Origin: Candidatus Dojkabacteria bacterium
GTDB taxonomy: Bacteria; Patescibacteriota; Dojkabacteria; GCA-002793355
Reading direction: 5' to 3'
Assembly: GCA_030583825.1 (NCBI GenBank)
Contig: CP129477.1
Location: 382,308-446,307 of the forward strand
DNA: 64,000 nt
Positions 1-18,997 of the stretch are shown one piece after another (position 1 is the first letter of the stretch; each line of letters opens with the position of its first letter). Made by a program: the position numbers and the translations under genes. The notes beneath the pieces are model-generated. The model was not told where the DNA came from and did no database searches. It saw nothing but the letters and a program-made list of their open reading frames with translations.

Positions 1-187
1 ATTCCTGCTCCGCACTGTGGCGCTCGCTACGTGGCTCTTTGCCATATTTATTGTTCTCTACACGGTGTTGTCATGACAACTTTGATCTTTTCTCGCCGCG
101 GGGCAGGCCTATCATCTCACGATGTTACCTGCCTCGCTCTCGCTACTAAAGCCAAATAAACAAAAAATTCCCCCTACTATTCGTTCC

Positions 188-658: not shown

Positions 659-732
659 ACATGTATTATATACCTCACCACATCAAGTTACTACGCAAAA
701 TGCATACTAACGCCGACTAGTAGAGACTAAAT

Positions 733-1662
733 CTATTTCTTTGTACGCTTTCCACGTGCAAGGAAGTACCATCCAATGACAGCTGGAACCAATAGTAATG
801 GAGAGAAGACGACGAGCCAGATTCCAAGTGCGAGAACTGCATCAACTGTTGAAACTAACGCACGAACTGCTGTTTTGAATGTTTTGCCAAATTCAAATGT
901 ACCTTCAGGAACGTATGGAAGTGCAAATTCATCGGTGCTGAAGTAAATTGTAATTTGAGTATTCGTGCTCAGCTCATCCAATGCGCGCTTGCGCCCCTTA
1001 ATTGAGTCAATTTCTGACTGCATATTTGTTAGCTCTCGCTGGACTTTCAGAATTTCTTCGACTGTTGTCGCTTTTTCATAAATAACCTTCAAGCGGGAAT
1101 ATGTTTCTTCTGCCTGTGCCAGACGTCTCTCTAAATCAGTATATTCCTGGGAAATTTCGTACGACAAAAGCTGAGTATCAACGATTTTTATACTTTCCGA
1201 TGTCACCTTATCCAAAAATGTCTCAACTTGTGCATTTGGGACAAGAACCATAAGAGTTCCAAAAGAGTTTGTTCCATCCACAGTTTCGGATAAATTCACA
1301 TTCATTACTTTTCCACCGGCTAGCTCGGCCTGAACAGAAATTTTGTTTGAGAAGTCCTGTGTATTCTTCACATGGGCGCTCACATAGTTACGGGTAATAC
1401 GGCGATCTACAGAGTTTCCAACAACAGTTTCCTGCTTTGCTCCGGAAAAATCATAGTCTAACGAAGGAGCAAGCGTTAAGCCATTTGCTGCCGAATCCAT
1501 CCCTACACCACCGCGATACGACGGCATACTACTTGAATAATATTGGTTTCTTGGCATAAACATGCCGATTACGAGAATACCCATTAACACTGCTCCGCCA
1601 ACAAGCCCGAAAATCACGAGTTTTGCTTTCTTAAGAAGCGGAAAATTAACAGTTTCAGTCAT
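733..1662 (-). CDS. DUF4349-like membrane protein with an N-terminal TM, a central coiled coil and a C-terminal TM anchor.
   Basis: 309-aa ORF with N-terminal and C-terminal hydrophobic segments. The central region (LERRLAQAEETYSRLK...SIKGRKRALDELS) resembles the DUF4349 architecture. Assigned from memory of the family, not by search. Confidence 0.35.
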   Translation of the reverse strand: MTETVNFPLLKKAKLVIFGLVGGAVLMGILVIGMFMPRNQYYSSSMPSYRGGVGMDSAANGLTLAPSLDYDFSGAKQETVVGNSVDRRITRNYVSAHVKNTQDFSNKISVQAELAGGKVMNVNLSETVDGTNSFGTLMVLVPNAQVETFLDKVTSESIKIVDTQLLSYEISQEYTDLERRLAQAEETYSRLKVIYEKATTVEEILKVQRELTNMQSEIDSIKGRKRALDELSTNTQITIYFSTDEFALPYVPEGTFEFGKTFKTAVRALVSTVDAVLALGIWLVVFSPLLLVPAVIGWYFLARGKRTKK

Positions 1663-1771
1663 AAAAATGTGACTAAAATTAAAGGCGAAATGCCTGAATC
1701 ATTATACGCCGTTCTTACATTTTCGTGAATATGATTTACCTCTAATTAATCCACCAAGTTTTTACTTTCGG

Positions 1772-2842
1772 TTATGTGCTTTCAAGCATGGATTCGATTT
1801 CCTTAAAAAGAGATACTTTATCAATATCTTTGCCAATAAAAACGATTCGGGTTGTTTCATAGTCGAAATCTTTCTTTGGCGAGATGTATGGAATAAGCGA
1901 GCGAGATGCTCCTACAGACTGGAAAAGGAAAAACGATGGCTCAGTTTCTGCGTGGAACTTTATGAAACCTTTTGCTCTAATAATATTCCGTGGGAATTTA
2001 TCTCTCAAAAATCCGTCGAACTTTGTAAAGTCAACACGTTTTTCAGTAGTAAATACAATTTCATCTACATGATCGTGCTCATGATGATGGTCATGCTCGT
2101 GGTTGTGGTGCTCCTCATGCGAATGATGTTCATGTGTGTGATGTTCATGTGTGTGATGTTCATGTGTGTGATGTTCATGGTTATGTTCCTCGCGATGAGT
2201 ATCCTGCCTTCCCATACGTGATAACTTTTCAATAGTCCAATCGCCTGCACTAATCAAGATATCTGTATCGTGTTTTCCTTCACTCGTTAAGGTTGTTGTT
2301 GCAGCTTTTGGATTTACTGTCGCAACTGTTTCTGCTATTTTCTGCAATGAGTCGGCTGAAATGCCTTCAACTTTATTCAGTGCCACAAGATCTGCATAAT
2401 ACAGTTGTTTTACTCCAGTAACAAAGTTCTTAAACCCTAAGTCAAAGTTACTCGCATCCACAACGCAAATTACAGCATCAAGAATTACTCCGTAGTCGGT
2501 CAACTCAGACCACAGAAATGTTTGAATCACAGGGCTTACTTCTGCCAAGCCGGATGCCTCGATGATAATATGAGAAATTTTCGTATCTTGTGCCAGCATT
2601 TTCTTTACCGATGTCAAAATATCTTCCCTTGCGACACAACAAATACAGCCGTTGGATAATTCGACTAATTCTTCTGTTTCAAGCTCAATAAGCTGGCCAT
2701 CAATAGAAACTTCTCCAAACTCGTTAACGATAATGCCAAATTTTTTGTCTTTATGCTCTGCCAAGATTTTATTTACCAGCGTTGTTTTTCCACTCCCTAA
2801 AAACCCGGTAATTATGGTCACAGGTATTTCTTTTTCAAACAT
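1772..2842 (-). CDS. COG0523/CobW-family G3E GTPase (zinc metallochaperone, ZigA/YeiR-like) with a His-rich insertion.
   Basis: Walker [11 protein letters not shown], a CxCC metal motif (GCICC), and a His-rich tract [37 protein letters not shown]. CobW C-terminal domain follows. Confidence 0.85.
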
Positions 2843-2954
2843 GAGAAGGTGTATTATCTAAAAACTACTGTAAGAATTTTCCCACAATATTCTCGTAATT
2901 GCTATTTTAAGCGTGAAATATCCCCAACTATTCGAAAAAACGCTATAATCCTTC

Positions 2955-3881
2955 ATGAAAAACATTTTAATCACCGGCGCAGCTGGATTCATTGGAAGCT
3001 CTCTTGCTGAGAGACTTTCTCAAAATAAAGAGTATTCTCTTGTTCTTGTAGACAATTTTCTTACAGGCAAAGAGCAATTTATTGTCAAAAAGGACAATAC
3101 TCAGTTTATAAAAGCAGATGTAAACCAGTATGAAGATATTGCCCCATTGATGTCAGCAAACCGTTTTGATTATGTTTTTCATTATGCAGCAGTAGTTGGG
3201 GTTCAACGAACACTTCAAAACCCGGTAATGGTACTCCACGACATCGAAGGACTTAAAAATATTCTTTCTTTAGCTAAAAATACAGGAGTAGAAAGAGTAT
3301 TCTTTTCATCATCGTCAGAAGTATACGGAGAGCCGGTTGAGATTCCACAAAATGAAAGCACTACTCCATTAAACGCGCGACTTCCGTACGCAATTGTAAA
3401 AAATCTTGGAGAAGCATTTCTCCGCTCATACCAGCAGGAATATGGGCTCAATTATACAATTTTTAGATTTTTTAATACGTACGGCGCAAGGCAAAGTCCT
3501 GATTTTGTGATGTCCAAGTTTATTCAGAAAGCAAAAAAGAACGAAGATATCACGGTGTATGGTGATGGGTCACAAACACGAACTTTTTGTTACGTTGAAG
3601 ATAACCTCGACGCAACTGTTAGAACTTTGGAAGAAAACCTATTCGTAAACGATGTCGTAAATATTGGTAGTGACATTGAAATCAGCATACTGGACTTAGC
3701 GAAACTTATTATAGAAATAACCGGATCAGAGTCCAAGATTGTTCATCTTCCCCCACTTAAAGAAGGAGATATGTCGCGTCGTAAACCGGATGTCACCAAT
3801 ATGAAAAAGCTTTTGCAGCATGATTTTACTCCAATCGAAGAAGGCATTCGCAAAGTAATCGAAGCACAAAACGCACAGTAA
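2955..3881 (+). CDS. NAD-dependent epimerase/dehydratase, extended SDR, similar to UDP-glucuronate decarboxylase (UXS).
   Basis: GAAGFIGS Rossmann motif, the SSSEVYG motif, a YxxxK catalytic motif (PYAIVK), and RFFNTYGARQ typical of UXS/ArnA-type decarboxylases. Confidence 0.8.
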   Translation: MKNILITGAAGFIGSSLAERLSQNKEYSLVLVDNFLTGKEQFIVKKDNTQFIKADVNQYEDIAPLMSANRFDYVFHYAAVVGVQRTLQNPVMVLHDIEGLKNILSLAKNTGVERVFFSSSSEVYGEPVEIPQNESTTPLNARLPYAIVKNLGEAFLRSYQQEYGLNYTIFRFFNTYGARQSPDFVMSKFIQKAKKNEDITVYGDGSQTRTFCYVEDNLDATVRTLEENLFVNDVVNIGSDIEISILDLAKLIIEITGSESKIVHLPPLKEGDMSRRKPDVTNMKKLLQHDFTPIEEGIRKVIEAQNAQ

Positions 3882-3909
3882 CTCTCTCGCTTTGTAGATC
3901 CTATCTTGT

Positions 3910-6900
3910 TTATTTTAAGGCTTTTGTCCCGCTTGCTGACACTTTCGAGGATTTTAGCTGTTTTACACTGATATTTTCCCTAACGATGCGTATTGCACTA
4001 TCTTTTTCAGCGTTGACATATAATTTTTCGTTTGTTGCTTTCGTATTCGTCATCTTGTAAGTTGCATCAATAAGGCGAATAAAGTAGTCACGGTTTGGTA
4101 CGTAGAATGCGTACTTACCCGACTTATCTGTAAATGTCCGTGTTACCAATGTTTGAAACTCTGTCTCGTAGAGACCAACTTCAACTCCGGCAACAGGCTG
4201 TAATACTCCTTTTGAAACTGTTCCAAAGTCCGGAATGCGCAAAAGATAGGCTTTCAAGGCAAAGAATCCACCATAAAATGTAAGTACTACCATATTTACA
4301 AACGATGGAGTAATAAAGGTTGCCCAAATACTGTAAGCAAAGCCTCCATATAATAGCGCTGAATTAAGCTTTTCAAATACAAAGAGTGCTCGTGTTTTTA
4401 CAAGTCTCCAGGTAAGTTTCGCTTTATCCTCCGTTTTTTCGGGATCAATTGGAATTGTTAACGTTACAGGTGCATTATCTGCTTTAATTTCTAGTGTTTC
4501 TCCATGATAAACGTTCATGAATGCGTCATCTGTTTCACCTGGCACAATGGCTGACGGAAAGACATACCCTATTTTCGTAACTTGAATAAAGTATTTTCCC
4601 GCTTTTGGAGTAAGTTTAAATACACCCTGCGCGTCGGTAACTGCCGTTGTTACAATTTTTCCACTGCCTGCATCAAAAAGACGGATGATTGCTCTTCCAA
4701 GTGGTTTCTTAGTGACGCCATCGTATACAACTCCCCACGGAATTCTTCGACGTAGTCGCTCAATAAGACCGACACCGGCAAGCCATATATTTCCTTGCGC
4801 AGCTCCTCCCAAAATCGGAAGAACTGTTTCTGCAACAATAATTGCGCCAACAACGCCAGCACTTAAATCTTGTGGAGTAAATCCAACAAAGAATAATGAT
4901 ACTGTCTGCGTTTTTTGACAATTTTCACCGACAGCTTTAATAGTAAATTGCTGAGAACGATCTGCGACGAATCCATATAAACCATTTGGAGCGACCTCTG
5001 ATCCAATCGTATCAATAGCAACGCTGGTCGCATCAATAACTTTCCAACTCAATACTACTCTTTCATCTGGTGTTGCAAAAGAATCGCTAAGCTTAAATTC
5101 CTGAATAACAGGACACATTGCATTTGGCGGAATTGTAGGAAATGGAGTCATCGTTGGTGTTGGAATTGGGGTACCGGAAGGCAGAGGATTAATCACAAAC
5201 TCTGTAGGTGTTGGAGTAGGCAATGGTGTTTCGCTATTATTTACAGTAATTGTGATCGTCATCGTTACAATTGAGTCGTCTGGGCGAGTTCCTTGGATCA
5301 TAAATGACATTGTTTGAGGAATAGAGACGTTCACTGTTCCATTTGCCGGAACGCTGCCAATTCCATTATCAATAATGAGATTCGTCATAAACTGGCTTGT
5401 CCATTGCAACGTAATAACCTGATTTTGTGCAACAAAGTAGTCACTTGATGTGAATGTTAAATTCGGAACAGAAGGAATAGCTACCGTAAATGCAGCAGTA
5501 TCTGTTAAGGCCGGAGTATGGACATCTTCTACAGTAATTGTAAAATTACCAGCTTCGTAGAACAACACATTTTGAAACACTTTCTGCCCATTATCTCCCA
5601 CAGTAAATGTGTAATTGTCAGGCAGATCTGCGGTCAAACTTGTGCTGGAAAATGTCACTTCTCCTCGATATGTTGTATCCACATTGTTGTTCTGATCGCG
5701 TGCAATAACAGTGAGCTCAATTACTTCGCCTGTTAACAGATTTGTTTTACTTGGAATTAATTCAATTGCCACTGTAGACGAAATTGTAAAGTCTGATTCA
5801 CTGTCCGCATTGTTTCCGAACGATTTCCAGTCACTGAAAAGTCCATTGCTTACATTTACAGTACGCACTCGCCATTTATACGAAGTTCCCACTTCGAGAT
5901 TCGTAATTGTTGCAGACAATAACTGCGGTGCTCCACCAGTAAATACAATTGTGTTCGAAGTATGAACGTTTGTAACACCATCAAATGACTGATTTACTTC
6001 TTTTAATTCAAATTCAAGACGCAGACTTTTTGGACTTCCAGGAGACGCTCCAGCATCGTATGCATTTGCTTTAAGCGTGACTGTCGTGCCACCAATAACT
6101 CCACCAACTGGAATAACTTCTTCTCCTGCGCCAAGTACTGAACCTTCGGACATTACCGGCGTTTCATATACAGGTTGTCTAAATTGCTGCGCGAATACTT
6201 GAGTTGCTTTGTCTCTTCTTATTAATTCTGAGCTTGAGCCCGGAGACACAGGTGCGTATTGGTTCTCAAAGTCAGGAGGTAATGGAACTGAGTTAGGCTC
6301 CGGTGGGTATGTTCCAATCTGACCTTCCTGTGCTGACGCGCCAGCTCCAAATGCAACAGAAATTGAACCCGACACTTCACAAGGGCCGCTTGCAAAGAGG
6401 ATTGATATTCTTCCTCCTCCACCGCCACCACCGTCAAATGTTCCGTCACCGCCATTGCCTCCCATTGCAGAGAGAGTTCCGCCAATATCACATGAATCAC
6501 CGTAGAGAAGAATTGAGCCGCCGGCTCCGCCTCCACCACCAGGACTACCGGTTGCGCCGCCTGTTCCATTCATAAGAATAGAACCTTTTACGGTAATAGC
6601 ACCCTGATTTGCCAAGACTGCGAATGCGTTTCCTCCATTTCCACCGATTGCCCCAAGGTTTGATGCACCTCCACCGCTTCCAAGAGTTAGTGGACGATAT
6701 TGATCTCCATACTTTATTCCACCGCCTGGGGCAGTGTTAATTCCATCAGATTCTGCAGTACCACCATCTCCTCCATGTGCACCTCCGCTACCACCGGTTT
6801 GTCCGACTCCAATACGTCCTTTTCCAGCACCTTTGCTTGAAGGAAATCCTCTTCCACTTCCGTTAATGACTGCACCTGTGTCTAAAGTAAAGTCTCCAGA

Positions 6901-9900
6901 TAAATTAAGAGCTACACCCTGACCAACCATATATGGCTCGAGCTGTTCAAATTGCTCCAAAGTAAGGCCACGAGCGTGCGCTTCGATTTCTCTCGCTGTT
7001 AGTGCACGGTTCTGAATATGAATTTCATCTAATTTTCCTGCGAATTGGTTTCCCGCAGTTGAGCTATATCCTCCAATAATTGAAATTGGTTGCGTTGTTT
7101 TTGTGTTTATTGTGCCAACTTTGTTTCCATCTACATAGAAATGAGTTTGAGATCCCTGTGCAACTGTTGCGATATGATGCCACCCTGCTGCCAATGAATC
7201 CACGTCAAAGCCTGAACTATAAAAAGAACTGAAATATGCACCAAGAATACCATCACCATTCACAAGTATGTGGTGATATGTTCCACCATTTTTTGCGACC
7301 AGTGTTCTGTACCCATCTGGCGTCGTCGGCAACGGAAAAGTAGCCCACAATTCGATTGTGTAGTCTGTTGTCGTTGGAACTTCTGGGAACGTAATAACTT
7401 TCTGTGTAGCATTAAAGTTGTATCCATTACTGAACTTTCCTGTTTCTGGAAGAGGTTCTTTAACTGGAGTTGCATGTCTTCCGTATGATGAGCTATCAAG
7501 CAAATATGCTCCTGTACCAGTTACTTCGTCCAAATGCCATAGCGCCAAGGAATTTTCTGTTGCCGCCGGAGCCGATGGAGTGAGTGATGGAGCATTTGAT
7601 GCAAGCACAGTTGTATCGCTTTTTATCCACATTGTGACATTTTGTCCAAGGGTAACATCATGGAATGTCCACTCGCCAGCCTCCATATCTTGTACTCGTC
7701 CTGCACGATTTGCATTTACCACCCTAAAGTTGCCTTGTCCGGCACCATGAAGATTTAATGCTTCTGTGTAGACTGTTCCAGGGCCGCCCCAGTTACTTAC
7801 TCCTCCACCGAGAGATTGAACGTTTGAATCCGAAGTTACAGGGAAGCTTCCTCGAACTATTTCGTACAAAGCAAGGTGACCTCCGCTTCCGCCCTTGGCA
7901 CCACTATTTTGTCCTCCGTTTACAGTAAATGAACCTGTTCCATTAATTGTATTCGCGGCAATCCATAACGAGCCTCCAGCACCTGTGCCAAGGCCAGGGA
8001 ATCCTTTTACTCCATTGCCTCCGTTTGCTGAGACAACACCATTGTTTGTAAAGATTCCGGTCGCAGCAATTTTAATTGCACCACCTCCGGTTCCACCCTG
8101 AGAAATATTACCAAAGTAGTTTCCATTCTGACCACCACTACCTAATGTTACGGGTTGTTTGATACTTCCATATGCGGTTCCTGCGGTACTAATACCATAT
8201 CCTCCATGTGATCCACCTGCTTCACCATTGCCTCCGTATCCTGGGCCGGTATTTATACCATAGCCAGTTCCGTCAGCATGAATTTTTGCAGAAGATTCAA
8301 CGGTCACATCACCATTTACATTGATTGTCACTCCATAATCGTCAAGTCCCTGGCTGTTATTATCGCCTTCGGTTGCGGCACTTCCATCGTATGAATTAAG
8401 AATAACTGTGGATTGCTGTTTTACCGTAAAGGAATCAAAGGTATAAATATCTTGGTTTGGATAACGCGTATTTTGACGCTTTTGCGTTCGTGCATACATC
8501 GTCAATGACGCAGGGTTCTGTCCATTTCCGACAGTTAAGTTGTTTCCACCGGAAATATCTCCAAGAATAGTGAGGTTAATTCTATCTATCGTAAACGCTT
8601 CAGGAAGTTCAAGCATTCCTTCCGGCTCAACACGAGACGCAGTATTGTCTCCTTCAAGTCCCTCTTCGCTGGTAATTTTAAGAGTGGAATCAATACCCAT
8701 TACTCGAAGATGACCGTATTCTTTTACATAAATTTTTGAAAACTCCTGTACAGGATCAAGCACATTATATGGAACTGCCGCACTGAGTGTATTTCGATTA
8801 TTATTGTTCACTCGTAAGTCGCCATTTCCACCGATCGCACCATCTCCATCAATATATACAGTTCCTGGGCCTCCCCAATTATTCACACCGCCACCAAACG
8901 ACTGTAAATTCGTTTTACTTTCAATTGGGAAGTTACCTCGTAAGTTTTCATAAATTGCAATACGTCCTCCACTGCCACCATTTGCACCGCTATTCTCTCC
9001 GCCATTTGCTGCAATAAGACCGTTTCCATTGAGAGTATTTGCAGAAATCCAAATAGAACCACCTGCTCCGGTTCCTAGACCTGGAAATCCTTTTACTCCA
9101 TTTCCACCATTTGCTGAGATTCGACCGTTATTTTGCAATATTCCACTAACTGCAAGACGAATTGCACCGCCTCCGGTTCCTCCATCTGAAATATTACCGA
9201 AATAGTTTCCGTTCTGACCACCGCTACCAAGAGTAACAGGAGTTTTTACGCTTCCATAAGGCGCACCTACTGCACTGACACCAAATCCTCCATGAGAGCC
9301 ACCTGCTTCTCCATTACCTCCGTATCCTGGGCCACTGTTAATTCCAAAGCCTCTTCCGTCGGCGTGAATAACACCGTTCGCATCAATCTGTAGATTTTCA
9401 GCAATAGTTAATGTCACACCATACTCATTGGCATTTTGTTCATTGTTATCATTTGGGGTTCCCGTATTGCCCACATAGCTAACAAGTGTCATTGTTGCTT
9501 GCGACTTTACATGTAGTGACTCAAATTCATAGACGTCTTGGTTTGGAAAACGATCGTTTTGACGCTTCTGTGTTCGCGCATAGAGTGTCACAGCTGCAGG
9601 GTTAGTTTCGTTACCGATTGTAAGATTATCAGCACCAGTAATATCGCCTAATACAGTGAGATTTACGCGATCCACAGTAAATATTTCCGGAAGATCTAAT
9701 AAGCCCTCAGGCTCGATCTTTGATACTGTTGCATCTCCTTCGAGGCCGCTTTCACTTGTGATTTTAAGGGTTGAATCAATACCCATTACTCGAAGATGAC
9801 CGTACTCCCTAACATGAATCTGGGTAAACTCCTGTACCGGGTTTACTGCATCATACGGAATTGCAGCACTATTTGTGTTCTGTCCATTATTGTTTACCCA

Positions 9901-12900
9901 CAAGTGACCATTGCCCCCAGATTGACCGTCGTCATCAATATAAATTGTGCCGGGGCCTCCCCAATTGGATATGCCACCACCAAACGATTGAATATTCGAC
10001 TTCGTTGTAATAGGGAAAGACCCTCGTATTGACTCATAAATTGCAATACGTCCTCCGCTACCACCACTACCACCGTCATTGGAGCCTCCATTTGTTGTTA
10101 TCAGTCCATTTCCGTTAATACTGTTCGCAACTACCCATAACGATCCACCTGCTCCGGTTCCAAGACCTGGAAATCCCTTTACTCCATTCCCTCCACGCGC
10201 TGTAAGTCCTCCATTGACCGTTAATGTTCCCGTAATGTTAAGCTTGATTGCTCCACCTCCGGTTCCTCCGTCTGAAATGTTACCGTAATAGTTTCCATTA
10301 TTACCGCCACTACCAAGAGTTACTGGTTCTTTGACTCGACCGTACGGAGCGCCAACTCCGTTGTAACCATATCCTCCGTGAGATGCACCGCCTTCACCGT
10401 TTCCGCCATAGCCAGGGCCACTGTTTATTGCATACCCTCGGCCATCTGCGCTAACAAGCCCGCCAGTCTCAATTGTAAAATCATCAAGAACATTTAGCGT
10501 TACGCCATATTCATTTAGGTTGGCTTCATTGTTATCTTCTGGAACAGAATTATTACCAACGTATGAAGTCAGATAGAACTGTCCTTGGTTTTTTACCAGA
10601 ACAGAAGTGAACTGATAATTGTCCTGATTTGGTGCATGCAAGTTTTGACGCTTCTGAGTTCGCGCATAGAGAGTTACAATTGCCGGATTCGTACCGTTTC
10701 CAATTGTTAATGAGTCTGCTCCAGACAATTCTCCTAAAATATTGAGGTTTACTCTATCAACAGTAAATACATATGGCACCTGAAGCGTTCCTTCCGGCTC
10801 AATCTTTGAAACAGTGTTATCACCGTCAATGCCGTCTTCATCGAGAATACGAAGAGTTGAGTCAATGCCCATTACCCGAAGATGACCATACTCTTTTACA
10901 TGAATTTTAGTAAATTCCTGGATTGGATTTGCATCGTCATACGGAATACCTGCACTGTTCGTGTTTTTACCATCGTTATTAACCCACAATTCTCCGTTTC
11001 CACCTGATTGACCGTCGTTATCAATATAGATTGTGCCGGGGCCTCCCCAATTGGATACGCCACCACCAAATGCTGTGACTTTTGTTCTGTCGGTAATAGG
11101 ATAATCTCCGCGAGTATTTTCATAAATTGCGATGCGACCTCCACTGCCACCACTTGCTCCATCGTTTGACCCTCCATTTACATTGAGTAGTCCATTACCA
11201 TTAATTGTGTCGGCAATAATCCATAGTGAGCCACCCGCACCGGTTCCAAGGCCAGGGAATCCTTTAACCCCATTGCCTCCGCGAGATGTAATTTCTCCGT
11301 TAACAACCAAATCTCCTCCAGTTATGATCTTGACTGCTCCACCGCCACGGCCTCCCGTTGAAATATTACCGTAATAGTTTCCATCCTGGCCACCACTACC
11401 CATTGTTAATGGATTTTTTACGCTTCCATACGGCAGTCCGACCGCGCTCACACCATATCCTCCATGCGATCCGCCTGCTTCTCCGTTTCCACCGTAACCA
11501 GGGCCAGTATTTGTATTATAACCACGTCCATCAGCGCTTACTTTACCACCTGATTGGACATCAAAATTTCCTGAAACCGTTATGCTTACGCCATAGTCAT
11601 CGAGATTCACTGCATTGTTATCTGTTGTTACAGAAGAGTTTCCGTCATATGAAACAAGCGCAAATTCTCCCTGACTTTTAACAGTGATCGTTGAAAATGA
11701 ATAATGATCGTGGTTAGGAAAGTGATTGCTCTGACGCTTTTGTGTTCGAGCATATAAAGTCATTACTGCAGGATGTGTACCATTTCCAACAGTGAGTGTT
11801 GTTGCGCCAATATAATCACCAATGATGTTCAAATTTATGCGATCCACAGTAAAAGTTTCTGGAATATCGAGCATACCTTCGGGTTCTACTTTCGATGTTG
11901 TATTGTCGCCTTCTAGGCCATCTTCATTAGCGATTTTAAGGGTGGAACCAATTCCTAATACTCGGAGGTGACCGTATTCTTTGACGTAAATTTTATTAAA
12001 CTCTTGAAGTGGCTTGTCTGGGTCAAACGGAATTCCCGCACTGTTCGTGTTGTTTCCATTATTATTCACATAAAGATCTCCATTACCGCCTGTGTCGCCA
12101 TCTGCATCAATATAAATTGTTCCTGGCCCACCAATTGTTGAAGACCCTCCTCCAAATGCTTGCATGTTCGCTTTATTGCCAAGTGGAAATGTTCCTGTAT
12201 TGGACTGATAAACTGCAATACGTCCTCCACTTCCGCCATTCGAGTCTTGATTTACACCACCATTCGCTCGAATAAGTCCATCTCCATTGAGGGAAGTTCC
12301 AGATAACCAAATACTTCCACCTGCTCCTGTTCCCAAGCTTGGAAAACCCTTTACTCCGGGGCCACCATTTGCGGAAATAGTCCCATTTACCGTAATTGTT
12401 GCTGTAGAGATGAGACGAATTGCTCCACCTCCAGTTCCACCATCTGAAGTATTCCCAAAATAGTTACCTCCTTGACCTCCGCTACCAAGAGTTGCCGGCT
12501 CTTGTACACTACCATATGGCCCATTGGCGGCATTAATTCCATATCCTCCATGTGATCCACCAGCTTCACTATTGCTGCCATAGCCTGGGCCACCATTCTG
12601 ACCGTATCCTTGTCCATCTGCAGAAATAACACCACCATCTTCGACTTCAAATGCATCGGCGAGAACTGTCGTGCTAAAGTCGTTTGCGTAGTTTGCATCA
12701 AGACTGTCATAACCTCTCAAAGTTAATGTTGCACCATTTCTTACATAGAGAGTTCCCAATCCACGGCAGTCAAATACACCACCAGGGACGTCAATCGCAT
12801 TCCATGTTTGATTCGTGTCAACATCAATATCTGGACAACTGCCAATTTCAGATACAAATGTAATGCTCTTAGAAACACCTGTATTTGAGTTTCCATCTGT

Positions 12901-14796
12901 TGCTTTTATTTTCATGACTTCGCCAAATGTGTATTGTGCCGTTGTTGTTTGTCCTTCTCCATTTACAAGGTTTACAGAAGGTGGACTTAGGGTTCCACTA
13001 CCGGGAGTTACATTATCTGCGAGTACCGGAGTGAGCGCTACATTTCCTGAAAATGAGACTAAGTTGTTAAATTCGTCGTAGGAACGTACTGTCACTGTGA
13101 AATTTTCATTAATAACTGCAATGTCAGGAACTGTTACTCCGTAATGATGTAACTCACCTGCATCAGCGCTTGCCGTAAAAGTAACTGTTCCGATACTGTT
13201 TCGGGTTGCCGTCATTGTATTGTTATTTGAGCCGGCAATCTGTCCGAGTGTCCATGCCACTGTTCCGAGTCCATTTTCGTTAGTAATTGTTGTTGAAGGA
13301 AGAACACTTCCATTACCAGCCGTTACGGCCCAAACAATTGTCTCACCAGGAACGCCAAATCCTGCAGAATCTTGTACTTTTGCAATAACACTTTGAGACA
13401 AAGCACTACCGGCTGTTCCCGTTTGATTATCGCCACTTACTTTTACAATAGCACTAGGATTTCCTACAATAAGAAAATCTCTATCGTTTGTACCATTGCC
13501 ACCGAAATCTACCCAGTGACCTGGAATACCGGAGTTATTAATTGCTCGGATTCTAAATTTGTATTCTTTACTCACCGGAACAGAAGCCACAGTCATCTGC
13601 CCACAATCGCTTGGAGGCGCAGCACAAAGCTGAGGATTAGACTGAAAAGTTCCCTGCGTATGTGTAAAGATTCCTGTAAACGCTTCGTTTTTATCGCGAA
13701 GCTCAATTTGCAAACGAACTTGCGCAGAGGGGTTAGGATCTTGTAAATCTGCTACAAATTTAATACTTGTCTGACGAGTAACACCACCAACCGCGATTTC
13801 GTTGCTTGTTGCATCTTCGTAAATATGCACAATTGTTGGAGTTTCCGGGCGGCAAGCTGGCCCAATAAGTGTGCCGTTTTGTCCATCTTGTCCGGCATCT
13901 CCACCCAAGACACTAACTGCACCGGAAAACGTATTGCCACTTTCACAAATCATCACAATACGTCCTCCACCGCCACCTCCGCCTTGTCGTAAGGCTGTAG
14001 CATCAGCGCCACCACCACGAGCATCAACTCGGCCAGTTCCTGCAAATGTTGTCGCTTCTATCCATACGCTTCCACCTGCACCACCACCACCGGACGACTT
14101 GCCATCTGCGCTTTTCTGTCCATTTTCTCCATTTGCTGATACTTCTCCATTAATTGTTACTGTGCCGGAGGCTTCAACTTTAAGAGCACCTCCACCATTT
14201 CCACCAACACCTGCATTTCCACTGTTTCCTCCTGCACCGCCCAAAGTAATTGGCTGTTCATTAAACCCAAAAGCAACGCCAGGAGTTGCACTTGCATTCA
14301 CTCCATCGGTAATACCTTCTCCACCGGCTCCACCATGACCACCACCGGAGCCTGCTGTGTCGCCTGCGGCATCGGCTGCATTTCCATTTGTGTCGTTACT
14401 CGTTGATGAATATCCCTGCCCATCTGCCGAAACTTTTCCACCGGCATCCACTGTTAAGTTGGCTACTTTTATAACAATTCCTTTATCATTTGAAGAACTT
14501 GTGTCGTTCGTAATATGGCTCTTTATTACCAAGTTTCCACCAGATGCAACGGTAATATCCTGACCAGAACAATCAATAATATTGTCATTTGCAAGAGGAG
14601 TTACTTCCAATGTTGTAGAAATAGTACCGGGAAGTACGCACGATATAGCAGTAACATTTGTAAGTGCTGAGAATAAGTAAAATACGCTAATTGAGGCAAT
14701 GCTCATGACAATGCCAAGCGACAGAATTCTTACCAAGAACTGACGTGATACTCTCTGTAAGAAGTTTGTAAGAACAGGTGAAATATTATGGTTCAT
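3910..14796 (-). CDS. Giant (3,628 aa) membrane-anchored, Gly-rich beta-helix-like repeat surface protein. It contains Ig-like/FN3 domains, a LamG-like domain, a PT-rich linker, a carboxypeptidase-regulatory-like domain and a C-terminal multi-TM region.
   Basis: Single uninterrupted 10,887-nt ORF. Along the protein: N-terminal TM anchor (aa ~25-53), Gly-rich ADGxGY...GGxGGS.W blocks, bacterial Ig-like (Big) motif SGDNQTGTAGSALSQSV, 4.6 tandem ~362-aa repeats, LamG/ConA-like jelly-roll (YTIELWATF...GWHHIATV...HFYVDGNKV), PT linker (PLPTPTPTEF...IPTPTMTPFPTIPP), CarboxypepD_reg-like segment (VVYDGVTKKPLGRAIIRLFDAGSGKIVTTAVTDAQGVFKL), and at least 4 C-terminal TM helices. Confidence 0.85.
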   Translation of the reverse strand: MNHNISPVLTNFLQRVSRQFLVRILSLGIVMSIASISVFYLFSALTNVTAISCVLPGTISTTLEVTPLANDNIIDCSGQDITVASGGNLVIKSHITNDTSSSNDKGIVIKVANLTVDAGGKVSADGQGYSSTSNDTNGNAADAAGDTAGSGGGHGGAGGEGITDGVNASATPGVAFGFNEQPITLGGAGGNSGNAGVGGNGGGALKVEASGTVTINGEVSANGENGQKSADGKSSGGGGAGGSVWIEATTFAGTGRVDARGGGADATALRQGGGGGGGRIVMICESGNTFSGAVSVLGGDAGQDGQNGTLIGPACRPETPTIVHIYEDATSNEIAVGGVTRQTSIKFVADLQDPNPSAQVRLQIELRDKNEAFTGIFTHTQGTFQSNPQLCAAPPSDCGQMTVASVPVSKEYKFRIRAINNSGIPGHWVDFGGNGTNDRDFLIVGNPSAIVKVSGDNQTGTAGSALSQSVIAKVQDSAGFGVPGETIVWAVTAGNGSVLPSTTITNENGLGTVAWTLGQIAGSNNNTMTATRNSIGTVTFTASADAGELHHYGVTVPDIAVINENFTVTVRSYDEFNNLVSFSGNVALTPVLADNVTPGSGTLSPPSVNLVNGEGQTTTAQYTFGEVMKIKATDGNSNTGVSKSITFVSEIGSCPDIDVDTNQTWNAIDVPGGVFDCRGLGTLYVRNGATLTLRGYDSLDANYANDFSTTVLADAFEVEDGGVISADGQGYGQNGGPGYGSNSEAGGSHGGYGINAANGPYGSVQEPATLGSGGQGGNYFGNTSDGGTGGGAIRLISTATITVNGTISANGGPGVKGFPSLGTGAGGSIWLSGTSLNGDGLIRANGGVNQDSNGGSGGRIAVYQSNTGTFPLGNKANMQAFGGGSSTIGGPGTIYIDADGDTGGNGDLYVNNNGNNTNSAGIPFDPDKPLQEFNKIYVKEYGHLRVLGIGSTLKIANEDGLEGDNTTSKVEPEGMLDIPETFTVDRINLNIIGDYIGATTLTVGNGTHPAVMTLYARTQKRQSNHFPNHDHYSFSTITVKSQGEFALVSYDGNSSVTTDNNAVNLDDYGVSITVSGNFDVQSGGKVSADGRGYNTNTGPGYGGNGEAGGSHGGYGVSAVGLPYGSVKNPLTMGSGGQDGNYYGNISTGGRGGGAVKIITGGDLVVNGEITSRGGNGVKGFPGLGTGAGGSLWIIADTINGNGLLNVNGGSNDGASGGSGGRIAIYENTRGDYPITDRTKVTAFGGGVSNWGGPGTIYIDNDGQSGGNGELWVNNDGKNTNSAGIPYDDANPIQEFTKIHVKEYGHLRVMGIDSTLRILDEDGIDGDNTVSKIEPEGTLQVPYVFTVDRVNLNILGELSGADSLTIGNGTNPAIVTLYARTQKRQNLHAPNQDNYQFTSVLVKNQGQFYLTSYVGNNSVPEDNNEANLNEYGVTLNVLDDFTIETGGLVSADGRGYAINSGPGYGGNGEGGASHGGYGYNGVGAPYGRVKEPVTLGSGGNNGNYYGNISDGGTGGGAIKLNITGTLTVNGGLTARGGNGVKGFPGLGTGAGGSLWVVANSINGNGLITTNGGSNDGGSGGSGGRIAIYESIRGSFPITTKSNIQSFGGGISNWGGPGTIYIDDDGQSGGNGHLWVNNNGQNTNSAAIPYDAVNPVQEFTQIHVREYGHLRVMGIDSTLKITSESGLEGDATVSKIEPEGLLDLPEIFTVDRVNLTVLGDITGADNLTIGNETNPAAVTLYARTQKRQNDRFPNQDVYEFESLHVKSQATMTLVSYVGNTGTPNDNNEQNANEYGVTLTIAENLQIDANGVIHADGRGFGINSGPGYGGNGEAGGSHGGFGVSAVGAPYGSVKTPVTLGSGGQNGNYFGNISDGGTGGGAIRLAVSGILQNNGRISANGGNGVKGFPGLGTGAGGSIWISANTLNGNGLIAANGGENSGANGGSGGRIAIYENLRGNFPIESKTNLQSFGGGVNNWGGPGTVYIDGDGAIGGNGDLRVNNNNRNTLSAAVPYNVLDPVQEFSKIYVKEYGHLRVMGIDSTLKITSEEGLEGDNTASRVEPEGMLELPEAFTIDRINLTILGDISGGNNLTVGNGQNPASLTMYARTQKRQNTRYPNQDIYTFDSFTVKQQSTVILNSYDGSAATEGDNNSQGLDDYGVTINVNGDVTVESSAKIHADGTGYGINTGPGYGGNGEAGGSHGGYGISTAGTAYGSIKQPVTLGSGGQNGNYFGNISQGGTGGGAIKIAATGIFTNNGVVSANGGNGVKGFPGLGTGAGGSLWIAANTINGTGSFTVNGGQNSGAKGGSGGHLALYEIVRGSFPVTSDSNVQSLGGGVSNWGGPGTVYTEALNLHGAGQGNFRVVNANRAGRVQDMEAGEWTFHDVTLGQNVTMWIKSDTTVLASNAPSLTPSAPAATENSLALWHLDEVTGTGAYLLDSSSYGRHATPVKEPLPETGKFSNGYNFNATQKVITFPEVPTTTDYTIELWATFPLPTTPDGYRTLVAKNGGTYHHILVNGDGILGAYFSSFYSSGFDVDSLAAGWHHIATVAQGSQTHFYVDGNKVGTINTKTTQPISIIGGYSSTAGNQFAGKLDEIHIQNRALTAREIEAHARGLTLEQFEQLEPYMVGQGVALNLSGDFTLDTGAVINGSGRGFPSSKGAGKGRIGVGQTGGSGGAHGGDGGTAESDGINTAPGGGIKYGDQYRPLTLGSGGGASNLGAIGGNGGNAFAVLANQGAITVKGSILMNGTGGATGSPGGGGGAGGSILLYGDSCDIGGTLSAMGGNGGDGTFDGGGGGGGRISILFASGPCEVSGSISVAFGAGASAQEGQIGTYPPEPNSVPLPPDFENQYAPVSPGSSSELIRRDKATQVFAQQFRQPVYETPVMSEGSVLGAGEEVIPVGGVIGGTTVTLKANAYDAGASPGSPKSLRLEFELKEVNQSFDGVTNVHTSNTIVFTGGAPQLLSATITNLEVGTSYKWRVRTVNVSNGLFSDWKSFGNNADSESDFTISSTVAIELIPSKTNLLTGEVIELTVIARDQNNNVDTTYRGEVTFSSTSLTADLPDNYTFTVGDNGQKVFQNVLFYEAGNFTITVEDVHTPALTDTAAFTVAIPSVPNLTFTSSDYFVAQNQVITLQWTSQFMTNLIIDNGIGSVPANGTVNVSIPQTMSFMIQGTRPDDSIVTMTITITVNNSETPLPTPTPTEFVINPLPSGTPIPTPTMTPFPTIPPNAMCPVIQEFKLSDSFATPDERVVLSWKVIDATSVAIDTIGSEVAPNGLYGFVADRSQQFTIKAVGENCQKTQTVSLFFVGFTPQDLSAGVVGAIIVAETVLPILGGAAQGNIWLAGVGLIERLRRRIPWGVVYDGVTKKPLGRAIIRLFDAGSGKIVTTAVTDAQGVFKLTPKAGKYFIQVTKIGYVFPSAIVPGETDDAFMNVYHGETLEIKADNAPVTLTIPIDPEKTEDKAKLTWRLVKTRALFVFEKLNSALLYGGFAYSIWATFITPSFVNMVVLTFYGGFFALKAYLLRIPDFGTVSKGVLQPVAGVEVGLYETEFQTLVTRTFTDKSGKYAFYVPNRDYFIRLIDATYKMTNTKATNEKLYVNAEKDSAIRIVRENISVKQLKSSKVSASGTKALK
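7770..12834 (-). repeat. Intragenic tandem repeat array: about 4.6 copies of a ~1,086-nt unit (362 aa) encoding Gly-rich modules of the giant protein.
   Basis: The SADG(Q/R)GY motif recurs every ~362 aa (aa ~725, ~1087, ~1450, ...). DNA copies are about 75-85% identical (for example 8045-8160 vs 9130-9240). Recurring antisense shadow ORFs at 7895, 10079 and 11132 (PAPVPRPGNPFTP...) mark the period. Confidence 0.8.
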
Positions 14797-15718
14797 TCTT
14801 TATATTGCTATCTAATTCAAAATCGTGCGTTAACTTACGTCCAAGCGCATAAATGCACACACCAAGAAGAACTACTCCTGTCAGTTTGAGCGCAATAAGT
14901 GCCCACCAAGCAGGAAGCAAAATGAATAATCCTGTACCTAAAATCCATAAAAATGTGAAAAACTGCATATATACGACCACAGCAGCATAGAAAATCGCTT
15001 CTTTTGAAATAGATGACTGTGAAGATTTTTTAATAGCAAACTTCTGAGTTAGAAATTTCACAATAAATGCCCAAATAACATGAAATATAACTCCAATAGT
15101 TGCACCTGCAATTGCAAAGATCGGCAAAATAATCGCCCAGTAACTCATGAGAAATGAAGTGCTAACCATTTGTGCAATCGCACCTTCGGCACCTGCTTTG
15201 TCAAATGTAACTGTTTTTGAAAATAGCTGCGAATACTGAATCTCTGTTCGTTTTTCTCCATCTTTAAACAACACATGATCTTTTAAAAGCCCAATACCGT
15301 TGATTGTTACTGTTTTTCCGTTCGCAATTCTATCATCCCAGAAGTGCGGGTTTAATTGCCCAGTATTATCAATGACGCAAACATATTGGCTCATCTCTGT
15401 ATTTTCAATGTAGTACGTATATACTTGCGGTTTAATATCTGTGGAAAGTTGACCATTCTCAATTGTCATTGTTGTGAAATTGGCATTACGAAGTGCGTTT
15501 TGCACCTGATTCCCTAAATATTGAACCTGCGGAACAATAATGAAAAGAAATAATAGTGTCGCAGAGATAGCGATGGCGACCCCTTGGAAAATTGAAGACA
15601 ACAAGAAAAGCATTCCTAAATGTTTTTTAGTCAGCTTTGAGACTGCTGTAAATTTCTCGTTCCAGAAAAAGGGAACAAATAGCATCTCAAGATAAGTGCG
15701 CAGAGAATTCATGTTCAC
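14786..15718 (-). CDS. Polytopic membrane protein (N-terminal TM, ~130-aa extracytoplasmic domain, 3-4 C-terminal TMs; DUF1189-like?), translationally coupled to the giant protein gene.
   Basis: 310-aa ORF whose stop overlaps the giant gene start by 11 nt (14786-14796). Hydrophobic segments lie at aa ~35-62 and ~200-300. Family assignment is uncertain. Confidence 0.5.
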   Translation of the reverse strand: MNMNSLRTYLEMLFVPFFWNEKFTAVSKLTKKHLGMLFLLSSIFQGVAIAISATLLFLFIIVPQVQYLGNQVQNALRNANFTTMTIENGQLSTDIKPQVYTYYIENTEMSQYVCVIDNTGQLNPHFWDDRIANGKTVTINGIGLLKDHVLFKDGEKRTEIQYSQLFSKTVTFDKAGAEGAIAQMVSTSFLMSYWAIILPIFAIAGATIGVIFHVIWAFIVKFLTQKFAIKKSSQSSISKEAIFYAAVVVYMQFFTFLWILGTGLFILLPAWWALIALKLTGVVLLGVCIYALGRKLTHDFELDSNIKNEP

Positions 15719-15807
15719 ACGTTATTCTGACAGGATTTAAAAAATGATGCAATATCTTATAACCAGTATCAGTAGTCTACGGATCTCATATACCGTATCC
15801 CTCCCTT

Positions 15808-16278
15808 TTGACGTTGCTAGGTACCTCCCCCACAGGTATTGACTTTATTACATTCAAGAGAGATACTTTAGGTATGGCACAGATTCACATAAAAAAGACT
15901 TCCCTCTCGTGGATCTTTCTGAGCGTTGTAATAATGGCACTATTAGTATTTTTATTTTTGTCGCAACCTGAAAAGTCTCAATCACAAAATACTGTTGTCG
16001 CATTTGAAAACGATATTCAAATTATTACTGTCTCGGCAAAAGGCGGATATTACCCGTCGGTAATCACGGCAAAGGCAAACAAGAAAACTGTACTCCGTAT
16101 GCTTACCAAAGGAACCTTTGACTGTAGTGCCGCATTTACTATTCCCGCAATTGGATACAGAGAGTTTCTTCCAAATACAGGAACGACTGATATTTCAATT
16201 CCTCCGCAGGAAGCAGGTAACACAATAAACGCGACCTGCTCAATGGGAATGTATTCGCTAAAAATAAACTTTCAATAA
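15808..16278 (+). CDS. Small membrane-anchored cupredoxin-like protein, paralog B. It is the first gene of the copper operon, and the true start is probably the internal Met at 15874.
   Basis: Paralog of 188..658 with the same TKGTFDCSAAFTIPAIG core, plus Cys/Met-rich C-terminal TCSMGMYS. It sits 5 nt upstream of csoR. The candidate operator at 15822-15838 would lie inside the long-ORF N-terminal extension, which favours the 15874 start. Confidence 0.45.
   Translation: MTLLGTSPTGIDFITFKRDTLGMAQIHIKKTSLSWIFLSVVIMALLVFLFLSQPEKSQSQNTVVAFENDIQIITVSAKGGYYPSVITAKANKKTVLRMLTKGTFDCSAAFTIPAIGYREFLPNTGTTDISIPPQEAGNTINATCSMGMYSLKINFQ
15822..15838 (+). promoter_or_regulatory. Candidate CsoR operator (imperfect inverted repeat flanking a C-run) upstream of the cupredoxin-csoR-copA operon.
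   Basis: TACCT-CCCCCAC-AGGTA. This resembles the TACCC-N-GGGGTA type GC-tract pseudo-palindromes described for CsoR operators. It lies about 35-50 nt upstream of the probable Met start at 15874. Confidence 0.25.
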
Positions 16279-16283
16279 TTATC

Positions 16284-16580
16284 ATGAATCATCCACATCA
16301 TACACACAATTCTCATACTCTCTCGAAGCGACAAGCTTCTATCGCACTGAAAAAAGCTAGAACTCATATTTCAAAAGTACTGACAATGATTGAAGATGAC
16401 CAGTACTGCGTAGATGTTTTACAACAAATCCGAGCTGTCGAAGGATTGCTAAAATCCGCATCAGAGAAAGTGCTAAAGAATCATATGCAGACATGTTTTG
16501 CAGAAGGGATGAGTACTCATGATAAAAAACGAAAAGAGATACTGATTCAGGAAGTGCTAGATGTTGTAAAGATAAGCTAA
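16284..16580 (+). CDS. csoR: CsoR/RcnR-family (DUF156) copper-sensing transcriptional repressor.
   Basis: 98-aa protein carrying the conserved CsoR core (DDQYCVDVLQQIRAVEGLLKSA ... HMQTC), with Cys/His ligand positions in the expected spacing. Located immediately upstream of copA. Confidence 0.8.
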   Translation: MNHPHHTHNSHTLSKRQASIALKKARTHISKVLTMIEDDQYCVDVLQQIRAVEGLLKSASEKVLKNHMQTCFAEGMSTHDKKRKEILIQEVLDVVKIS

Positions 16581-16591
16581 AAGACACAAGC

Positions 16592-18973: not shown

Positions 18974-18997
18974 GTTTAGTCTACTTGGAGATAGCGA

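Follow-up and report, generated by a model that had tools for sequence, protein, structure and literature searches.

A single 10.9-kb gene of Candidatus Dojkabacteria encodes a giant protein whose family is widespread, has so far gone undescribed and carries an unusual membrane anchor. In our best reading, which we regard as reasonably probable, this protein is a C-terminally anchored adhesin that forms a cell-surface fibre of Dojkabacteria. The gene is real and intact. It is located within the window, i.e. the entire stretch of 64,000 nucleotides that was analysed, and comprises the features listed below (coordinates refer to the window, residues to the predicted protein).

14786..15712, minus strand: partner gene upstream of the giant gene, encoding a 308-aa polytopic membrane protein (putative divergent DUF1189)
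3910..14796, minus strand: giant gene
14647..14796, minus strand: aa 1-50, N-terminal signal sequence with a K/R n-region, an h-region (aa 24-45) and Ala50
13837..14559, minus strand: aa 80-320, N-terminal degenerate Gly-rich block G, associated with Cys53/Cys76 and Cys284/Cys315
12709..13836, minus strand: aa 321-696, spacer (FN3-like and Big_1-like, i.e. Ig-like), then cap and array lead-in
7699..12708, minus strand: aa 697-2366, tandem array, 4.6 units of exactly 362 aa
9773..9804: 32-nt exact repeat, copy 2
8687..8718: 32-nt exact repeat, copy 1
7405..7698, minus strand: aa 2367-2464, array end and linker, containing LPETG at aa 2449
6970..7404, minus strand: aa 2465-2609, LamG/concanavalin-A-like lectin-type domain
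6277..6939, minus strand: aa 2620-2840, second degenerate Gly-rich block G, with Cys2769/Cys2806
5242..6276, minus strand: aa 2841-3185, FN3-like domain, then Ig-like domains, strongly conserved in orthologues
5116..5241, minus strand: aa 3186-3227, Pro/Thr-rich linker, candidate wall-spanning segment
4897..5115, minus strand: aa 3228-3300, small domain close to the membrane, flanked by the invariant Cys3228/Cys3293
4753..4866, minus strand: aa 3311-3348, predicted TM helix 1 (hydropathy 2.09), extended by a short amphipathic stretch, with an RLRRR cluster behind it
4441..4734, minus strand: aa 3355-3452, transthyretin-like (CarboxypepD_reg) beta-sandwich 1
4240..4368, minus strand: aa 3477-3519, predicted TM helices 2 and 3, forming a hairpin whose loop (4-5 residues) is uncharged
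3958..4224, minus strand: aa 3525-3613, transthyretin-like beta-sandwich 2 (AF2 pLDDT ~80)

Integrity of the gene and its family

The window derives from a 1.09-Mb chromosome (1,090,595-bp NCBI contig) of Candidatus Dojkabacteria (CPR), in line with the small-genome bacterium presumed in the sequence-only reading. The giant gene, which takes up approximately 1% of this genome, starts with ATG and consists of 3,628 codons and a stop codon. Internal stops are absent, and the predicted product of 3,628 aa has a mass of 372 kDa, a Gly content of 16.6% and a pI of 4.8. The proposal of a single ORF for a composite giant surface protein likewise holds. Records of the flanking proteins come from the chromosomal contig, and their accession numbering leaves exactly one free slot for the giant CDS; judged by this numbering, the NCBI annotation probably treats the gene as one CDS. 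An exact look-up of the giant protein sequence yielded no match, scans for promoters and terminators around both ends of the gene gave chance-level signals only, and no paralogous segments were found elsewhere in the window.

An exhaustive HMMER search revealed 4,340 related cluster representatives, whereas a word-indexed search with one repeat unit recovered 19 short fragments only and thus understates the family. Full-length collinear orthologues of 3,100-4,700 aa are present in at least 15 Dojkabacteria/Patescibacteria genomes, with full-length identities of 39-43% to P0025, P0030, P0044, P0073 and P0028, and in Dojkabacteria genomes the matches span query residues ~10-3615. The family is centred on Dojkabacteria, and the Gly-rich G block occurs in thousands of protein clusters from many phyla. 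The order of elements in the family is signal sequence, G block, FN3/Ig spacer, G-b array and optional LamG, followed by a further G block, FN3/Ig, a Pro/Thr linker and a TM-sandwich-TM-TM-sandwich cassette. The window protein fits this collinear order, and the chassis G-G-b-G-b-G-b-G-b-G-G is common to most orthologues. Units are more similar within one protein than across proteins, which indicates that they evolve in concert while their copy number stays fixed. Our literature searches returned no description of this unnamed family of giant beta-helix proteins.

The sequence-only reading had allowed for a mis-assembled array. Logan short-read contigs from several runs correspond to window positions 2150-8716 and 9773-25712 at 100% identity, leaving 1,056 nt (window 8717-9772) without independent recovery. 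Samples in which the gene is present include runs DRR779145/6, DRR859392 and SRR24948970/1. These contigs (k=31) break within the array, and the breaks coincide exactly with the 32-nt exact repeat, the two copies of which lie one period apart and which is the sole exact repeat of at least 31 nt in the giant gene. An assembly artefact or a pseudogene, i.e. an incorrectly joined array or a non-functional ORF, could be argued from these breaks and from the stretch that was not recovered. However, it is extremely improbable, considering that the breaks fall at this single repeat, that the unit copies are just 57-68% identical in DNA, that the unit count of the window protein is the norm in about 20 orthologues, that the frame is uninterrupted, and that the chromosome record holds the flanking proteins with one slot for the giant CDS. 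The array is neither a mis-assembly risk nor a variable-number array, and its unit number is conserved across the family.

Repeat units and their fold

The array has a period of exactly 362 aa (1,086 nt) with zero indels, as anticipated from the 4.6 tandem copies of ~362 aa described for the middle of the protein. The units begin at residues 738, 1100, 1462 and 1824 and are followed by a partial unit (2186-2366); the value of 4.6 copies is obtained when they are counted together with the lead-in from aa 697. Each unit consists of a Gly-rich block G (~205 aa) and a block b (~157 aa), and the copies are 61-70% identical in protein. The motif set previously noted for the Gly-rich blocks, including ADG(Q/R)GY and GGSHGGYG, was recovered, each motif being found 4-6 times. 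The two degenerate blocks (aa 100-320 and 2620-2840) are 35-39% identical to the Gly-rich half of an array unit. One of them had been assigned to each end of the protein; the first is indeed located near the N-terminus, whereas the second follows the LamG domain and does not sit at the end of the protein. Tandem Repeats Finder, with a period limit of 500 as compared to the array period of 1,086 nt, found nothing.

The array repeat matched no Pfam or NCBIfam family, and the assignment to a well-characterised family that had been considered for the repeats did not emerge from these scans. The G block, with rungs of ~30-35 residues, likewise has no Pfam model. An AF2 model of aa 1050-1480 (pLDDT 83, pTM 0.86) displays short strands throughout, suggesting that the array repeat folds as a continuous beta-helix, though as a confident model and not a solved structure. 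This structure prediction of a repeat unit agrees with the beta-helix-like character ascribed to the blocks before.

The beta-helix is a generic fold that polysaccharide lyases and hydrolases employ as well. The protein could accordingly be read as a surface-displayed polysaccharide-degrading enzyme, with the units as lyase/hydrolase modules, the LamG domain as a carbohydrate-binding module, and either the cell wall of a host or a glycan from the environment as the target. We give this reading little chance: no lyase, hydrolase or Beta_helix family in Pfam/NCBIfam matched the protein even at E up to 1, adhesin beta-helices score above polysaccharide lyases and hydrolases in the fold comparison, and the residues conserved in orthologues are nearly all Gly and structural.

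The fold resembles the tapirins of Caldicellulosiruptor (PDB 6n2b, 4wa0), which are beta-helical and belong to the adhesin class, and likewise the autotransporter passengers IgA1 protease, Hap, Pet and Ag43, the TPS proteins HMW1 and EtpA, the Candida Awp adhesins and Fap2. However, sequence identity to the tapirins and other beta-helical adhesins is just 5-18%, and no sequence family is shared. In contrast to these adhesins, the giant protein comes without a beta-barrel translocator, a TPS domain or an outer membrane, and is anchored by predicted C-terminal alpha-helical TM segments. It cannot be assigned to type V secretion, as Pfam/NCBIfam returned no autotransporter or TpsA match, the C-terminus is composed of alpha-helical TM segments and sandwiches, and the neighbouring genes include no TpsB-like partner. 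Nor does it belong to the RTX adhesins, the nonapeptide GGxGxDxUx having 0 matches and HemolysinCabind no match.

Among named families, only NCBIfam gliding_AgmC_N (NF047640), the N-terminal domain of Myxococcus AgmC, matches the Gly-rich blocks in sequence, at aa 126-294 (E 1e-6) and in the C-block (E 1e-3). This match raises the idea of a motility or 'leg' adhesin, a fibre for surface translocation on the host like AgmC, and the putatively cytoplasmic sandwiches of the anchor could couple to an intracellular partner. Flavobacterium SprB and Mycoplasma mobile Gli349 are the gliding adhesins with which such a fibre would be compared. However, this idea is improbable: the AgmC_N match reaches 28 bits against a curated cutoff of 275, so that the resemblance is one of motifs and not of membership, motility genes are absent beside the giant gene, and Patescibacteria are thought to attach and move by type IV pili (PMC13293708).

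Termini, accessory modules and the upstream gene

The N-terminal hydrophobic segment had been taken for a TM anchor, but it is probably not a permanent one. In addition to the K/R n-region, 19 of 19 aligned orthologues display an invariant Ala at position -1 and a small or aliphatic residue at -3, and this Ala is located 6-10 residues past the h-region, compatible with a signal peptidase I site. The segment is probably a Sec signal peptide cleaved by signal peptidase I; both this cleavage and the membrane topology given below are derived from sequence rules. If it remained uncleaved as a signal-anchor, the ectodomain would be a giant loop anchored at both ends, and the protein would be an envelope scaffold or spacer, acting as a coat comparable to an S-layer, or as a ruler that fixes the distance to the host membrane, and not as a ligand-specific adhesin. 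Such an arrangement is unlikely, given the residues at -1 and -3. Moreover, the LamG modules, which vary among orthologues in number (0-4) and position, favour ligand binding, and most loci represent one giant gene per genome, with nothing pointing to lattice formation. A lipoprotein reading of Cys53 was rejected as well, since this residue lies ~8-10 polar residues past the h-region and, in most orthologues, the residues at -3 to -1 do not match a lipobox.

Among the accessory modules proposed before, the LamG/ConA-like domain was verified by Pfam Laminin_G_3 (PF13385; aa 2467-2604, 59.3 bits versus a cutoff of 27.6, profile positions 6-150 of 151), and the Pro/Thr linker was located as listed above. 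For the Big-like and FN3 domains, Pfam matches were obtained, but they remained below the cutoffs for fn3 (PF00041; 16.6-17.6 bits versus 25) and Big_1 (PF02369; 17.1-21.1 bits versus 34.9). The region aa 2841-3185 yielded sub-threshold fn3 and Pur_ac_phosph_N matches, a weak PDB FN3 match (1x4z) and a weak match to internalin K. PDB sequence/profile searches with the whole protein, the spacers and the partner were uninformative, with the spacers reaching E ~0.01 at best. FN3 and Big_1-like domains are plausible, not established. The spacer at aa 321-696, where Big_1 reaches 21 bits, is conserved among orthologues, including Cys391/398 and Cys654/677. All 12 Cys are located in the ectodomain, where they form six apparent pairs, and 8 of them are invariant; the ectodomain has a pI of 4.6 as compared to 8.9-9.7 for the sandwiches. 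Sortase anchoring was rejected: the only LPETG is internal (in the LamG lead-in), non-conserved and at chance level, and the protein lacks the C-terminal LPXTG with hydrophobic segment and basic tail of LPXTG surface proteins.

When scanned alone, the C-terminus matched CarboxypepD_reg (PF13620) in two stretches with 45.7 bits (cutoff 32.3), and it matches the transthyretin-like domain of carboxypeptidase D, which assigns it to the CarboxypepD_reg/transthyretin-like fold. The second stretch corresponds to sandwich 2, for which SdrD_B and bMG3 matches were likewise obtained. The AF2 model depicts the region of TM helix 1 as a single long helix (pLDDT <50). Instead of the at least four C-terminal TM helices counted earlier, three are predicted, a single one and a pair. 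The CarboxypepD_reg-like sandwich that had been placed between TM helices is present; however, there are two sandwiches, and the second follows TM3. K/R clusters are found after TM1 and before TM2 and are missing from the TM2-TM3 loop, a charge distribution that, by the positive-inside rule, probably places both sandwiches in the cytoplasm. Transthyretin-like domains are usually extracytoplasmic, which counts against this placement. In some distant homologues, P0182 among them, two TM segments may precede sandwich 1, in which case the sandwiches would be outside.

The transthyretin-like/CarboxypepD_reg relatives, namely carboxypeptidase D (5aq0), SdrD B, the CnaB pilin domains and NOMO, act outside the cytoplasm as stalk or regulatory domains, whereas the two domains of the giant protein are interleaved with three predicted TM helices and probably face the cytoplasm. 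To our knowledge, there is no described family with two transthyretin-like domains arranged in this way. The cassette ends every Dojkabacteria orthologue as well as short proteins of 370-580 aa, and recurs on other Patescibacteria proteins. Thus, the C-terminal placement that had been called unusual is undescribed as an arrangement, yet it is not a one-off.

The stop codon of the upstream partner gene overlaps the ATG of the giant gene by 11 nt, and in seven loci, window included, a partner homologue immediately precedes the giant gene. All seven homologues are polytopic with a loop of ~120 aa after TM1. Three of them match DUF1189 (PF06691; best E 4.3e-10), whereas the window copy gave no Pfam match at E up to 1. 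The exact ATG-start partner protein is present on Logan contigs, and an exact look-up of the GTG-start version gave no match. We know of no function for DUF1189, and literature searches did not reveal a pairing of DUF1189 with a giant surface protein.

Putative function at the host interface

In the adhesin reading, the protein would be exported by Sec via its N-terminal signal sequence, which is probably cleaved. The acidic ectodomain of ~3,260 aa, with six candidate disulfide Cys pairs, is modelled as a rigid beta-helical rod built on the conserved chassis, with a length that would reach tens of nanometres by standard beta-helix geometry. FN3/Ig-like spacers and one LamG lectin-type module would decorate this rod, and the Pro/Thr linker would lead to the cassette of TM helix, sandwich, TM hairpin and second sandwich that holds the fibre in the membrane. 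The rod may represent the constant part, and the LamG modules exchangeable parts for ligand binding. The most likely putative function is adhesion, with a glycan or the surface of a host or partner cell as the target, and host attachment is the reading that we infer to be best. The translationally coupled DUF1189-like protein, judged by gene pairing, probably aids insertion, anchoring or function.

Giant membrane proteins of the CPR predator Vampirococcus have been proposed as host-attachment factors (PMC8080830). Those of Vampirococcus lugosii contain WD40, TPR, PKD, DUF11, integrin and fibronectin domains (PMC8080830) and are described without this beta-helix chassis. The giant genes of Omnitrophota share with the present one long predicted beta-helix regions and carbohydrate-binding modules, and they too are proposed to act where a predator or symbiont meets its host (bioRxiv 10.1101/2023.11.21.568195). 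However, their products are >10,000-85,000 aa in length and comprise many TM regions, SecA-DEAD domains and antiparallel beta-helices (bioRxiv 10.1101/2023.11.21.568195), whereas the Dojkabacteria protein has one signal sequence and a compact C-terminal anchor. With 3,628 aa and no SecA matches in Pfam/NCBIfam, it is not of the Omnitrophota type.

A doubtful extension would be that the fibre is no passive adhesin but a fixed-length, signalling-competent tether, in which the unit count, held uniform by concerted evolution, sets the gap to the host, and the cassette and the DUF1189-like partner relay binding or force. If this were true, the C-terminal cassette, in which two cytoplasmic transthyretin-like domains flank a TM hairpin, would define a membrane anchor of a new class, shared by an entire repertoire of surface proteins in Patescibacteria.

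The genomes of Dojkabacteria and other CPR bacteria measure ~1 Mb, and these bacteria are presumed to live in attachment to other cells; the attachment machinery discussed to date is essentially type IV pili. Because its architecture is conserved across the class, and with 1% of the genome devoted to it, the giant protein is a prime candidate for a host-interaction structure. It offers testable handles: a beta-helical chassis with a conserved number of units that are homogenised within each gene, and LamG modules that, variable in number and position, are candidate specificity determinants. Moreover, the undescribed anchor cassette and the coupled DUF1189-like protein could help to list the surface proteome of Patescibacteria.

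A giant reading frame with an exact tandem array

The giant gene and the features that bear on its integrity and context are as follows (window coordinates, residue numbers for the protein).

3910-14796, (-): giant ORF, uninterrupted, 3,628 codons, ATG start
aa 738, 1100, 1462 and 1824: starts of the full units of the array; a partial unit spans aa 2186-2366
8687-8718 and 9773-9804: 32-mer exact repeat, copies one period apart
14786-15712: partner gene, 308-aa polytopic membrane protein, upstream of the giant gene

The encoded protein (372 kDa) is acidic (pI 4.8) and contains 16.6% Gly. Chunked BLASTP of this protein against itself yielded tandem units of exactly 362 aa without indels, amounting to 4.6 copies once the lead-in from aa 697 is counted, as the sequence-only reading had proposed; the motifs quoted there are each present four to six times. 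The copies are 61-70% identical as protein and only 57-68% as DNA. Both degenerate versions of the Gly-rich half, placed outside the array in the earlier reading, were likewise recovered, at aa 100-320 and aa 2620-2840 (35-39% identity).

The array is not an assembly artefact. The neighbouring proteins, including the epimerase WKZ30528.1, CopA WKZ30533.1, UvrA and UvrB, appear verbatim in the NCBI record of a 1,090,595-bp contig titled 'MAG: Candidatus Dojkabacteria bacterium'. Since the accession numbering leaves exactly four slots between epimerase and CopA, for the giant gene, the partner, a cupredoxin gene and csoR, the record suggests that the giant gene is annotated as a single CDS. Moreover, independent Logan short-read contigs from several sequencing runs are 100% identical to window 2150-8716 and 9773-25712. 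Both sets stop at the 32-mer, the sole exact repeat of at least 31 nt in the giant gene, which is the behaviour expected from a k=31 assembler. The intervening 1,056 nt are the only stretch of the gene without independent recovery, and the unit count of the window is the family norm. We regard an artefact as barely conceivable.

Family conservation and domain composition

An exhaustive HMMER search over 1.84 billion cluster representatives returned 4,340 proteins at E <=1e-3, of which 658 reached E <=1e-30; the best matches measure 2,000-7,500 aa, and 6-7 stretches are matched in each. Family members are named only 'hypothetical protein' in their source records. Scanning one genome per species, we found full-length relatives (query residues ~10-3615 matched) in Candidatus Dojkabacteria (WS6) as well as other Patescibacteria, some of them on complete chromosomes of 0.89-1.17 Mb. 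The Gly-rich block by itself is also present in Chloroflexota, Verrucomicrobiota, Planctomycetota, Myxococcota and Gammaproteobacteria. Five full-length collinear orthologues (P0025, P0030, P0044, P0073 and P0028; 39-43% identity) emerged from segment-wise BLAST and an alignment of six proteins; they share all parts of the window protein, N-terminus and C-terminal cassette included. Some genomes encode two giant paralogues, such as P0022 and P0026 on one 35,260-nt JGI contig, or L010 and L018 in the same MAG.

Profiles of the unit halves, the Gly-rich block G (~205 aa) and the second block b (~157 aa), gave the string G-G-b-G-b-G-b-G-b-G-G in the window protein and in ~20 of 28 long orthologues. 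The period is fixed within each protein and unequal among proteins (362 aa here; elsewhere 357, 354, 344, 341, ~338 and ~370). Units are closer within a protein (63-84% on average, reaching 99%) than between proteins (34-60%), where the matrices are flat and without positional orthology; this is the hallmark of concerted evolution, or of repeated turnover, with copy number conserved. In the complete Dojkabacteria genome L012 (CP129475.1), three of the array's four full units (units 2-4) are mutually up to 99% identical, pointing to a very recent homogenisation or duplication within the array.

The 362-aa unit matched no Pfam or NCBIfam family at E up to 1. An AlphaFold2 model of one unit with both junctions (aa 1050-1480; alignment of internal copies and 14 database fragments) consisted solely of short strands, and its fold is confidently predicted (pLDDT 83, pTM 0.86). 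From strand spacing we estimate ~12-13 rungs per unit; by standard beta-helix geometry, a unit would therefore be roughly 6 nm and the array ~28 nm long. The only named match of the degenerate Gly blocks was NCBIfam gliding_AgmC_N, which scored 28 bits where the cutoff is 275.

In the whole-protein scan Laminin_G_3 was the sole Pfam family above cutoff (aa 2467-2604, 59.3 bits), in agreement with the LamG domain read from the sequence. LamG modules number 0 to 4 among relatives and are located either ahead of the final G block or within the N-terminal spacer, which we read as a conserved chassis, the rod, with LamG as exchangeable cargo. Big-like and FN3 domains had also been read from the sequence; fn3, Pur_ac_phosph_N and Big_1 all score under the Pfam cutoff and PDB profile searches gave only E ~0.01; such spacer domains are plausible but unproven. 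CarboxypepD_reg passes when the C-terminus is scanned alone (45.7 vs 32.3 bits, two stretches), confirming its earlier assignment.

Protein termini and gene neighbourhood

An AlphaFold2 model of the C-terminus (pLDDT 71 overall) comprises a long helix of low confidence, a sandwich (pLDDT 85-90), two helices and a second sandwich (pLDDT ~80), hence three helices rather than the at least four claimed before. The CarboxypepD_reg sandwiches do lie within the C-terminal membrane region, yet the arrangement, previously called unusual, recurs: this anchor cassette closes every Dojkabacteria orthologue and is also found at the end of other Patescibacteria proteins and of short ones (370-580 aa) whose ectodomains are unrelated. 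Among nine aligned homologues, 4-6 K/R follow the first helix in seven, several more precede helix 2, and the helix 2-3 loop is uncharged. Both sandwiches are basic (pI 8.9-9.7) and contain no Cys; the protein's 12 Cys all reside in the acidic ectodomain. By the positive-inside rule, the ectodomain would be outside and both sandwiches inside; in some distant homologues two membrane segments may precede sandwich 1, which would reverse this assignment.

In L083, a binned MAG labelled Gammaproteobacteria, three separate anchor cassettes lie within 16 kb (~1792-2595, 9855-10592 and 15878-16594), which suggests that one type of anchor serves several surface proteins in tandem; the taxonomic label may be unreliable. 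A canonical sortase-type LPETG occurs once in the window protein, just before LamG (7450-7464 (-), aa 2449-2453); it is internal, not conserved in orthologues and at about chance expectation, and sortase anchoring was rejected.

At the N-terminus, all 19 aligned orthologues show a K/R-rich n-region and a ~20-aa hydrophobic stretch; 6-10 residues further on, every one of them has an Ala (Ala50 in the window protein), position -3 being V/I/L/T/S. The conserved pair Cys53 and Cys76 lies downstream. A signal peptidase I site fits better than a lipobox or the permanent TM anchor first assumed, and cleavage is fairly probable. A scaffold or ruler anchored at both ends appears unlikely.

The partner's stop codon and the ATG of the giant gene overlap by 11 nt. 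Six further loci have a partner homologue at this position, and their wider surroundings are unlike the window's; three of seven homologues match DUF1189 (best E 4.3e-10). The remaining neighbours (copper-resistance cluster, cobW, sugar epimerase) are not kept beside the giant gene elsewhere. The copper cluster flanking it here (188-658 (-) and 15808-18973 (+)), likewise not conserved beside orthologues, encodes two cupredoxin-like proteins, a CsoR-type metal-sensing repressor and a CopA-type P-type ATPase with an HMA domain.

Further features of the window were recorded.

21404-21831 (-): full-length tmRNA by Rfam (RF00023, 80.8 bits); across all 64 kb ARAGORN reported no tmRNA and no tRNA gene
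22477-27594 (-): in a row, MoxR AAA ATPase, DUF58 protein and 846-aa transglutaminase-like protein, presumably resembling known MoxR-DUF58-transglutaminase membrane gene clusters
27619-31526 (-): 1,014-aa DUF4012 protein (also with a weak, partial match to an epimerase-like family at 27.4 bits that has no matched stretch of its own), then a PEGA-domain protein, both candidate envelope proteins
41665-42621 (+): RodZ-like protein, Glucodextran_B-like domain between HTH_25 and RodZ_C
56573-59938 (+): 1,121-aa class-I aminoacyl-tRNA synthetase, IleRS-like (tRNA-synt_1, Anticodon_1, DUF5915), with NUDIX (PF00293, 71 bits, aa 225-337) inside the core match, about the usual editing/CP1 insertion site

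A putative surface fibre

Giant surface proteins are a known theme in CPR bacteria (PMC8080830), and the giant genes of Omnitrophota are a further case. In the searchable literature we found no description of the giant family, the G block, the anchor cassette or the DUF1189 pairing, and a 2026 review of the phylum treats attachment through type IV pili only, the giant family being absent from it.

Taken together, we favour, with somewhat better than even confidence, a beta-helical fibre on the cell surface, anchored at its C-terminus, that displays a lectin-type module and acts as an adhesin. A motility adhesin and a surface polysaccharide-degrading enzyme both seem quite improbable. The intact ORF, the repeats, the conservation of the family and the above-cutoff domain matches are read directly from the data, and the folds are confident models; export, signal cleavage, topology, rod length and ligand binding, as well as the role of the partner, are what we infer, and the source organism is expected to live attached to other cells.
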